From assembly GCA_963726745.1 (NCBI GenBank), contig CAVSDR010000002.1, positions 64,001 to 128,000 of the forward strand: a stretch of DNA of 64,000 bases, read 5' to 3'. Below are positions 54,659 to 57,730 of this stretch, piece by piece. The position numbers and the translations under genes are program-made. The stretch's first letter is position 1; every line of letters starts with the position of its first letter. A model generated the notes under the pieces. It did not search any database and was not told where the DNA came from. It saw only the letters and a list, made by a program, of their open reading frames with translations. Origin of the DNA: an uncultured Verrucomicrobiae bacterium (GTDB taxonomy: Bacteria > Verrucomicrobiota > Verrucomicrobiia > Chthoniobacterales > UBA10450).

Positions 54659-55147
54659 CGAACTAGACAGGATTTACAGGATTGTTTGGATGAACAGGAT
54701 GATGCAGATCGACTCCCTCGGGAGCAGACGTTTGCCGGCGATGCTTGCGTTTGAACTGCAGGCTGGGAGTTCCGAAATTCAAGAGGAGACCGATGTCGTG
54801 CTGAGTCGCGGTCAGGTAGTTCACTAGCTGCACTTCATCGGCTTTGCTTAAGGCACTCGCTGCTTTCAGTTCGCAAAGGATGAAGCCATTCACGACGACG
54901 TCCGCGATGAAGTCGCCCACAATGACGTGCTCGTATTTGACCGTAATCCGTTTTTCCAGTTCGACGGAAAGGCCAGCGCGCCGGAGCTCAAAGGCGAACG
55001 CGTTTCGATAGACGGATTCAAGGAACCCCGAGCCTAGTCCCCGGTGCACCTTCATGGCGCATCCGATGATCCTTTCGGTGAGCGCGTGATCTTCAGTGAA
55101 ATCCAATCCAGTAAATCCTTTGAATCCCATCAATCCTGTCTAGTTCG
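54659..55147. mobile_element. Inverted-repeat-bounded cassette carrying a GxxExxY gene, between gyrB and gyrA
   Basis: CGAACTAGACAGGATT (54659-54674) and AATCCTGTCTAGTTCG (55132-55147) are perfect reverse complements; each continues inward as four 9-nt-spaced GGAT units; interior is visibly more AT-rich. Confidence 0.6.
54663..55130 (-). CDS. GxxExxY protein (PD-(D/E)XK nuclease superfamily)
   Basis: IIGCAMKVHRGLGSGFLESVYRNA, ADVVV..ILCELKA, QLVNYL, GLLLNFG. Confidence 0.92.
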   Translation of the reverse strand: MGFKGFTGLDFTEDHALTERIIGCAMKVHRGLGSGFLESVYRNAFAFELRRAGLSVELEKRITVKYEHVIVGDFIADVVVNGFILCELKAASALSKADEVQLVNYLTATQHDIGLLLNFGTPSLQFKRKHRRQTSAPEGVDLHHPVHPNNPVNPV

Positions 55148-57730
55148 CTAGACGTCGAGATTGCGGACGTTGAGCGCGTTGTCCTCGATGTACTGGCGGC
55201 GCGGCTCGACCACGTCGCCCATCAGGCGGGTGAACATCTGATCGGCCTCGACGTTGTTGTCATCGTTCAGGTCGACCTTGAGGAGCTTGCGCTTGTTCGG
55301 GTCCATCGTGGTGTTGAAAAGCTCCTTGGCGTTCATTTCGCCCAGGCCCTTGAAGCGCTTGATCTGCACCCCGCGCCGGCCGATCTCGACGATCTTCTGG
55401 TGGATCTCCGGGATGGAGAAGAGCGGGTGCACCGTGGCCTTGTCGCCTTCGCCTTCGATCAACTCGAAGATCGGGTGATCGGCCGCGGCGTAGTGATCGA
55501 CCTTCAAACCTTTGCGCGCGAGCTCGCCGATTAATTTCTGGATCGAGGTCGACTCGTGCAGCTCCACCTTGGTCGCACGCCGGCGGATGCCGTTCGCTTT
55601 CGGCGAGGCTGCAGGCGCGAGCGGCAGGAGATCCTGGCCCATCTCCACGTCATAAAGATTCAGGTCGAGGTTTGCTTCGTGGAAACGCCGCAGCTCCTGC
55701 TCGTCGTGGAAGTAGTGGATCTTCTCGTCATTGCCTTCGCGCACTTTCACGAGGTAGTTCGGCAGCTTGCCGGTCTTCTGATCGCGCTCGGCGAGGAAGG
55801 TCTCGAAGTCGCCGCCATGCCGGCGGACGGATTCGCTCAGCTTCGAGAGGCGCTCGAGCGATTCGAGGATGTCCTTGAGCTGCGCGGTGCTCAGTTCCTT
55901 GCCGTCGGCCAGGTTGCGCAACTTCGTGTCTTCGGTGCCTAACGAGATCAAAATCTTGTTCAGCTGCACGTCGTCATCGACGTATTCCTCGCGCTTCTTG
56001 CGCTTCACCTGGTAGAGCGGCGGCTGGGCGATGAAGATTTTCCCAGCGCGCACCAGCTCGGTCATTTGCCGGTAGAAGAACGTCAGCAAGAGCACGCGAA
56101 TGTGCGAGCCGTCGACGTCGGCGTCGGTCATGATGATGATCCGGCCATAGCGCAGCTTGGTGATGTCGAAGGTGCCTTCGTCTTTCCCTTCCTTCACGCC
56201 GGTGTCTTCCTTCGGCTTGCCGATGCCGGTGCCGATGGCGGTGATCATCGACTGGATCTCGGTGTTCTTGAGCGCCTGGTCGAGACGCGCCTTCTCGACG
56301 TTGATCAGCTTGCCGCGAATCGGCAGGATCGCCTGATAACGCCGGTCGCGGCCCTGCTTGGCGGAGCCGCCGGCGGAGTCGCCCTCGACAATGTAGAGCT
56401 CGGTGAGCGAGGGATCACGCTCGGAACAGTCAGCCAGCTTGCCGGGCAAACCGCCGCCGGTGAGCGCGCCTTTGCGGATGGTCTCGCGCGCTTTGCGGGC
56501 GGCCTCGCGGGCGCGGGCCGCAGTCAGCACTTTCTCGAAGATGCGTTTGGCGACCGGAGGATTCTGGTCGAAGAAAGTCATCAAGCCTTCGTAGACGACC
56601 GAATTCACAATCCCGTCGATCTCCGTGTTCACCAGCTTCACTTTGGTCTGCGACTCGAAGCGCGGATTCGGCAGCTTGATGCTCAGGACGCAGGTCAGAC
56701 CCTCGCGCGCGTCATCGCCCGAGATCGCCGGATCCTTGTCCTTCATCAGGCTGTTGGCCTTGGCGTATTGGTTGACCGCTTTCGTGAGCGCGGTGCGGAA
56801 TCCGGTCAAGTGCGTGCCGCCATCGGGATTCGGAATCGAATTCGCGAAGCACAGGATCTGGTCGTTGTAGCTGTCGTTATACTGCAGAACGACGTCGACA
56901 AAAACCTCGTCGCGCTGGCGTGAGAGCACCACCGGCTTCGGGTGAATCACCTGCTTGTTCTCGCCGAGCTGCTTTACGAATTCCTCGATGCCGTGTTTGT
57001 AAAAAAACGACTCCTTTTTGCCGGTCTCGCCGCGCTCGTCGGTCAGCGCGATTTCGAGGCCAGGATTGAGGAAAGCCAGCTCGCGCAGGCGGCTGGCTAA
57101 ACGCTCGAACTTAAACTCGGTCGTGATCGTGAAGATCGTCGGGTCGGGCAGGAAAGTGATCAGCGTCCCGGTTTGCTTCTTGTTCTTCAGCTCCGCGATC
57201 ACCTCGAGTTTCTGCGTGGTTTTCCCGCGCTCGAAGCCCATGTGATAGACCTTGCCGTCGCGCGAGACCTCGACCTTGAACCAATCCGAGAGCGCATTGA
57301 CGCACTTCGCGCCGACGCCGTGGAGGCCGCCGGAATATTTGTAAGCGCCCTGGCCGAATTTGCCGCCCGCGTGAAGATTCGTCAGCACGAGCTCGACCGC
57401 CGGCATCTTGAACTTCGGATGCATGTCGACCGGGATGCCGCGGCCGTTATCGCGGATCGAGACCGAGCCATCGACATGCACGACGACATCGATCTTGCTG
57501 CAATAGCCAGCGAGATGTTCGTCGATCGAGTTGTCCAGCACCTCGAAAACGCAATGATGCAGGCCGCGTTCATCGGGATCGCCGATATACATGCCGGGGC
57601 GCTTCCGCACCGCCTCGAGGCCCTCGAGTTTATCGATCTGCGCGGCGTCGTATTTTTGCTCCGTGCCGATGTTGGTGGCCGCGTCGCGGGCGGATTTTGA
57701 AGCGGTGATTTCGTCCTGAGTTTCGAGCAT
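55148..57730 (-). CDS. gyrB: DNA gyrase subunit B
   Basis: [47 protein letters not shown]; long TOPRIM insertion. Confidence 0.97.

Follow-up and report, generated by a model that had tools for sequence, protein, structure and literature searches.

A gyrB-gyrA cassette with inverted periodic arms and a GxxExxY nuclease-fold gene, and a candidate role for its product in spreading word-matched repeats

In the genome of an uncultured, soil-type Verrucomicrobiae bacterium the gap between gyrB and gyrA is filled by a cassette in which two inverted arms enclose a gene of the GxxExxY (TIGR04256) family. Arms of this kind surround most GxxExxY genes that we collected, and gene-less copies of them lie at other gene junctions. 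On balance, we lean towards the reading that the cassette nuclease acts as the cognate mobilizer of word-matched arm pairs, in a manner resembling the REP/RAYT systems and TIRtrons. A broader proposal is attractive and falls just short of what we would call probable, namely that GxxExxY proteins mobilize a large undescribed class of prokaryotic repeats, with each lineage reading its own word of 8-11-nt period and spreading word-matched gene-less hairpins. Such a system would be RAYT/REPIN-like in its behavior and would be built on a RecB/Cas4-type PD-(D/E)XK nuclease without known transposase chemistry.

The window, that is the whole stretch of 64,000 nucleotides that was analysed, contains the following features in and around the cassette:

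55148..57730, minus strand: translated sequence that we take to be gyrB
55106..55147, minus strand: upstream (gyrB-side) arm, with an CGAACTAG tip and four GGAT units at 9-nt period, starting at the first base past the gyrB stop
55138..55153, no strand assigned: GTCTAG-TTCG-CTAGAC hairpin, which holds the second CTAGAC copy (55148-55153) and is absent from most relatives
55116..55121, minus strand: AAAGGA, a Shine-Dalgarno-like word of putative function, within an arm unit and 9 nt ahead of the likely TTG
54663..55106, minus strand: nuclease-fold gene of the GxxExxY family, giving 147 aa if read from the likely TTG (the longest frame begins at 55133)
54744..55082, minus strand: TIGR04256 core, with E30, D69, E79 and K81 invariant in 38/38 aligned proteins
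54659..54700, plus strand: downstream (gyrA-side) arm, an inverted copy of the upstream one, ending 8 nt before the gyrA start
52056..54650, minus strand: translated sequence that we take to be gyrA

A first-pass annotation had described perfect 16-bp inverted ends and four GGAT units per arm at 9-nt period, and the sequence bears this out. Positions 54659-54674 are the exact reverse complement of 55132-55147, a match that is not extendable outward, and the inverted arms as a whole reach 42 nt at 76% (54659-54700 with 55106-55147). The perfect inversion alone is modest evidence, because 4 of 100 shuffles also contain a 16-bp inverted pair within 700 nt. The window has just two runs of four GGAT units at 9-nt period, namely the two arms, and no such run was seen in 100 dinucleotide shuffles. 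The same annotation had correctly placed the right repeat against the gyrB stop, the left one 8 nt from the GTG of gyrA, the copies of CTAGAC at 54663 and 55148, and the hairpin, whose loop reads CGAA on the mRNA strand; as a conserved feature of the stop codon the hairpin had to be given up, as relatives carry TGA or TAA. The downstream arm encodes the C-terminal PVHPNNPVNPV of the ORF along with its stop codon, and the GC content of the cassette is 53% as against 60-62% for gyrB and gyrA. A 151-nt contig from another sequencing run matches 54599-54749 with 3 differences, and therefore the junction of arm and gyrA exists in another sample. No Rfam family matches over the cassette. Elsewhere in the window a prfC-like gene (50432-52034) is split in two frames, 50432-51475 and 51339-52034, by a frameshift or a sequencing error, and similar splits are seen at 49239-50306 and 58577-59404.

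The ORF at 54663-55133 (minus strand) scores 125.6 bits against TIGR04256 (cut-off 35) and 120.8 against PF13366 (cut-off 22), which places it above both curated cut-offs and confirms its earlier naming as a GxxExxY protein. TTG at 55106 appears to be the likelier start, because GGATTG in the final unit of the upstream arm is preserved among orthologues and the earlier ATG is not; some of the start region takes part in pairing in the predicted fold. As neither a sigma-70 promoter nor a terminator-like site was found in 54500-55400, the gene is probably expressed from the gyrB transcript. Median dN/dS among 14 intact cargo genes is 0.10 (44 of the 91 pairs have finite dS, the others being saturated), indicating that the gene is under purifying selection. 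Besides the four invariant residues, Q93 is found in 35 and Y97 in 33 of the 38 aligned proteins, and QxxxY is retained in most of them; this motif is a mark of RecB/Cas4-type enzymes that act on single strands or ends. The predicted structural model (pLDDT 86.8) has a restriction-nuclease core, and its closest neighbor is AF1548 (Z 8.6, rmsd 2.2, 85 aligned), followed by 3ijm, Cas4 SSO0001, lambda exonuclease and Hjc; these best matches are all of the PD-(D/E)XK-type fold with Z 8.6 and below, and none stands out. Both this fold and the E...D...ExK residues identify the protein as a member of the PD-(D/E)XK class, with a predicted nuclease activity. Foldseek gave no match at E<=0.001 and the PDB no sequence match, while Pfam and NCBIfam returned just PDDEXK_3/GxxExxY plus weak Cas4 matches and no HUH/Y1 tyrosine transposase; none of the known transposase types (DDE, HUH, Ser/Tyr recombinase) appears among the family and structure matches.

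An examination of gyrB-gyrA junctions in relatives recovered 40 distinct ones, 31 via gyrB/gyrA DNA and 9 via protein. The 31 comprise 8 with a cassette (the source genome counted), 15 that are empty (13-72 nt) and 8 with other cargo; the 9 found by protein are all filled, so that 17/40 overstates the frequency of the cassette. The empty-site comparison proposed in the first-pass annotation thus points to a non-IS cassette that is gained and lost and has empty alleles. Among the filled junctions one cassette is frameshifted (G024) and another decayed (G014). When mapped on a gyr tree with 36 rows (another 4 were left out for short flanks), the filled state requires 7 changes, at least 4 of them forced by the starred branches, and order-wide loci include 13 gyrB-gyrA cassettes in families f1, f12 and f16 (two repeat loci had already been counted). 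Four cassettes with a CGAAC tip group together in both the cargo and the gyr trees, the rest being poorly resolved. Synonymous distances are greater for the cargo (pS 0.63-0.88) than for gyr (pS 0.44-0.65) across the 36 pairs printed. The tree changes, the purifying selection and this excess of cargo distance together mark the cassette as an old resident which has been repeatedly lost or replaced. Recent horizontal arrival was rejected on the same excess, and the notion of a recent insertion finds no support with cargo synonymous sites near saturation; two separate colonizations of the junction were also considered, and a single clade is not rejected (p-AU 0.17). No same-strain empty allele was seen in contigs of the sequencing runs (shares 0.11 or less), most of which come from other organisms. 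Empty alleles are too diverged to reveal a short target duplication, and CTAGAC/GTCTAG, considered as one, is an exact 6-nt repeat in just 2 of 17 filled junctions and was rejected. One relative (G022, L017) has at this junction a gene for a four-helix-bundle protein (TIGR02436, of the 23S-IVP type) with its own GAATGAC-type inverted arms, and in G014 a copy of the same arm type, without a gene, is found after frr. The other cargo of the gap includes DUF4160/DUF2442, ParE, Phd/PIN toxin-antitoxin pairs and a Stf0 sulfotransferase gene (L022, L025, L031, L225, L023, L233, L084).

Through genus searches and one scan of genome contigs 144 GxxExxY loci were fetched, and 128 of these are distinct, full and away from contig ends. 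Inverted flank matches scoring at least 24 are present at 107 of the 128 loci as against 4 of 116 shifted controls, and matches at 32 at 93 loci and no control; one of the six peptide search patterns was derived from the arm and may favor arm-bearing loci. The expectation that inverted periodic arms surround other GxxExxY genes therefore held for most of them. These counts take in three unpublished genomes, G001, G008 and G042 (6 loci of the arm count), of which G001 also enters the genus word-pair count and G001 and G008 the after-frr site comparison given below; no conclusion rests on them alone. Among the 90 loci with long flanks, 55 have a stop in the same orientation no more than 10 nt away from the upstream arm (antisense control 10/90), and 44 have a start in that orientation equally close to the downstream arm (control 3/90). 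The arm words vary between lineages, with ACAGGAT, ACAGAAT, CACGGAT, CGCAGAT, CAGGAA, CGCAGAG, CGCAAAG and others being observed, and they track the GxxExxY protein tree, on which arm class changes 33 times as against 82.6 when shuffled (on a quick tree, where many neighbors are same-site orthologues). The source genome alone has three GxxExxY cassettes, each with its own word, at gyrB-gyrA and at two further junctions which we recognize as metK-ahcY and nuoF-nuoG. Five loci have a whole hairpin on both sides of the gene, as in REPtrons. The cassette protein has no phage matches and is matched in 8 of 72,556 plasmid records. At several loci (L292:1501-2670, L301:670-1836, L293, L294, L296, L308) the GxxExxY cassette is fused in frame ahead of a prepilin-type gene (Verru_Chthon cassette protein C-like), with the nuclease and right arm replacing the leader peptide, and prepilin peptidase would free the prepilin-type product.

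The search for ORF-less copies called for at the outset was fruitful, with gene-less arm pairs being detected at other junctions of both the source genome and its relatives. The source genome holds four gene-less hairpins of the same word plus several solo arms. Six of its eight hairpin ends bear the CGAAC(T/G)AG tip of the cassette. Every one of the three resident arm words has copies in this genome, and GAAT has none. In the genus the word pair is seen in 26 of 34 genomes, and its reversed control never. From 51 fetched loci we obtained 56 gene-less copies, picked from the listed matches, whose junctions were classified with a home-made gene finder as 38 co-directional, 11 convergent, 5 divergent and 2 uncalled; this bias in orientation is not significant by count (5/54 divergent against 16%, p 0.10) and is so solely against intergenic length. 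The TAG of the tip serves as the stop of the neighboring gene at 8 of 41 stop-side ends. A preference for genes ending in GTY plus stop, hinted at by the four source-genome sites, was rejected (3/41 against a 4.3% background, p 0.26), and the insertions revealed neither a target duplication nor a target motif. At these sites some relatives have a copy and others have nothing or a different palindrome, and the word itself is nearly invariant across the copies, in part owing to the selection pattern. Several further observations concern such sites. The convergent after-frr junction (L034 / L210-L222) holds, depending on the genome of the genus, one of at least 4 unrelated palindrome families or nothing at all. 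A gene-less copy without its left tip (L036:833-900, G000 C6:990132) supplies the last codons and stop of an upstream gene which we read as PEPCK, and the G019 copy is intact there. In G019 a gene-less hairpin is duplicated in tandem with its flanks in a BIME-like manner (L189:4600-5050, L194:690-1110), and the source genome has two further palindrome families, an GTCATCCCGAGCG-type and an GGGGAGCGCAGGCTGCCAGCCTG-type (G000 C2:55844-55969; C2:18503, C3:311409, C6:872517, C7:135356).

An order-wide survey of the same 160 genomes, in which at least 6 GGAT matches defined a repeat-rich genome and at least 100 bits a close homologue, found such a homologue in 14 of the 23 repeat-rich genomes and in 18 of the 137 others. 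GAAT repeats outnumber GGAT repeats in 12 of 12 genomes with GAAT-armed cassettes; among 15 with GGAT-armed cassettes GGAT is the more numerous in 9, with one tie and 5 in which GAAT is. The contrast (GAAT over GGAT in 12/12 versus 5/14) gives a Fisher p of 7e-4, which is overstated as kin are not independent, and the word state changes just 5 times on the tree. The tallies were made by hand for genomes with readable cassette arms, and they include the cassette's own arms, so that G027 and G084 say little; G121 has both cassette types and both repeats. Nine of the 23 repeat-rich genomes lack a close homologue, and two with many repeats, G002 (96% complete, 26 matches) and G047 (29), have no GGAT-type gene among their TIGR04256 matches. 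Overall, the repeat word of a genome agrees in most cases with that of its resident cassette.

These observations can be understood if the PD-(D/E)XK nuclease reads the GACAGGAT words in the arms and, in the way that RAYT serves REPINs, occasionally brings about the copying of gene-less arm pairs to further gene junctions. The cargo gene would be read from the gyrBA transcript and weakly translated from the start within the upstream arm. Its product would bind several repeat units and nick or cut the arm tip in DNA, probably in a single-stranded or extruded form, and host repair would then put arm pairs elsewhere. The survivors would be inserts between genes, with flanks trimmed until the tip meets stop and start codons, and an RNA hairpin, if one forms, would be incidental and tolerated by the operon. 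Against this reading, the junction in G022 is taken up by a different type of gene, the four-helix-bundle one, with inverted arms of another kind, so that arms do not go with a single enzyme.

The first-pass annotation had alternatively envisaged an RNA-level element whose arms pair and loop the ORF out of the gyrBA mRNA. In a fuller form of this reading RNase III or the encoded nuclease would cut the stem to free the ORF, as in 23S rRNA intervening sequences, with gene-less copies as processing sites. In its favor, the predicted transcript fold pairs the arms end to end (duplex -45.4 kcal/mol), cassettes lie in the orientation of the host genes and flush with them, and an IVP-type gene occupies the junction in G022; excision by RNase III is also described for intervening sequences (PMC4990558) and, in Neisseria, for MITE RNA (PMC2229807). 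The fold of the whole cassette, however, has a z of only -2.2, and sense-strand G-U mismatches show no bias over A-C ones in cassettes and gene-less copies (84 vs 71 and 50 vs 64). Nor do the arms match within copies: in 50 gene-less copies (6 misparsed or compound ones excluded), compared with arms permuted within genomes, the scores are 213 vs 216.5 for the outer part, 56 vs 59 for the linker and 242 vs 264 for the distal part. For these two reasons we read the arms as probable arrays of recognition words and not as a selected RNA stem. The outer 10 nt do match better within junctions (113/160) than between them (78.8), which in view of the within-copy result fits better with a tip sequence shared throughout the genome. 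Moreover, 5 of 54 gene-less copies sit between divergent genes, and the spread of copies is left unexplained. On the whole we regard the RNA-level reading as unlikely.

We regard it as somewhat less likely still that a different enzyme, either a RAYT/TIRYT or an IS transposase, moves the arms as MITE- or REP-like ends and that the GxxExxY gene is captured cargo. Repeat-rich genomes without a close homologue, the alternation of palindrome families after frr, the use of inverted arms by different cargo types and the frequent TA-GACAGGAT at tips would all suit such a scenario. However, the arm word follows the GxxExxY tree and the word of the resident cassette follows the repeats of its genome, and the tip TA is not universal (T in 69/100, A in 78/100) and is missing from several other arm families. 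More improbable than either is a toxin, defence or addiction nuclease at a hot spot of selfish genes, silenced or autoregulated by arms that spread passively. ParE, PIN/Phd and DUF4160/DUF2442 modules in the same junction of relatives, the purifying selection and a likely start within the paired arm are in keeping with it, but PADLOC fits nothing better than weak Cas4-type matches, the cassette has no antitoxin or methylase gene, and dozens of dispersed word-matched copies go unaccounted for. Mobilization by the cognate nuclease would, if true, assign a role to a protein family that is very common and listed as unknown, account for an intergenic repeat family in Verrucomicrobia and other phyla, and represent an enzyme chemistry new to the propagation of repeats. 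The one-base switch between GGAT and GAAT that occurs in nature makes cognate recognition directly testable, and it could lead to a small nuclease with word specificity.

The cassette protein is a clear member of GxxExxY/PDDEXK_3 (TIGR04256, PF13366), and PF13366 is listed as of unknown function (PMC3424549); the family description that we found mentions neither arms nor gene-less copies, and a literature search, with subscription papers and bioRxiv supplements mostly outside its reach, found no paper describing GxxExxY arms. Like the bacterial MITEs (Correia/NEMIS, RUP, ERIC), some of which are cut as RNA by RNase III (PMC2229807), the gene-less copies are short, non-autonomous and near gene ends, with inverted ends; unlike them, they have no demonstrable target duplication and a variable interior, and their matching ends flank a nuclease gene instead of an IS transposase. 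The ORF-bearing 23S rRNA intervening sequences (S23p/IVP) are described as about 430-490 nt in length and patchy in distribution, with a long terminal stem and one small ORF (PMC4990558). The cassette resembles them in size, patchiness and the terminal stem around a single small ORF, and an IVP-type gene is found in the same junction of G022, but it lies between protein genes and not in rRNA, encodes a nuclease fold, has dispersed gene-less copies and showed no trace of RNA-stem selection in the above comparisons. In TIRtrons inverted repeats overlap or flank a single TIRYT gene and some are dispersed as dimers (PMC3733652); the cassette likewise has inverted repeats overlapping one gene and dispersed copies, whereas TIRYT is a tyrosine transposase and the cassette gene is not. 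REPINs are characterized as extragenic elements of about 100 nt made of two inverted repeats and a variable spacer, and the RAYT gene as single-copy, repeat-flanked, retained between constant neighbors, inherited for the most part vertically, seldom on plasmids and matched to the repeat population (10.1101/2021.07.10.451892). The cassette, too, has dispersed extragenic inverted doublets matching the flanks of a single-copy gene, which is vertical, has a fixed site in several families of the order and is rare on mobile replicons. REP tips are noted as often providing TAG stops (PMC3733652), as arm tips do here in 8/41 cases. Nevertheless, the enzyme has the PD-(D/E)XK fold where RAYT is of the HUH/Y1 type, the arms are tandem non-palindromic 9-nt (ACAGGAT) words where REPs are palindromes with a GTAG/CGTC tag, the repeats number in tens of copies where REPINs number in hundreds, and the arms overlap both ends of the ORF. 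Because its enzyme and its repeat unit are not those that define REPIN-RAYT systems and TIRtrons, the cassette would work like a REPtron without being one.
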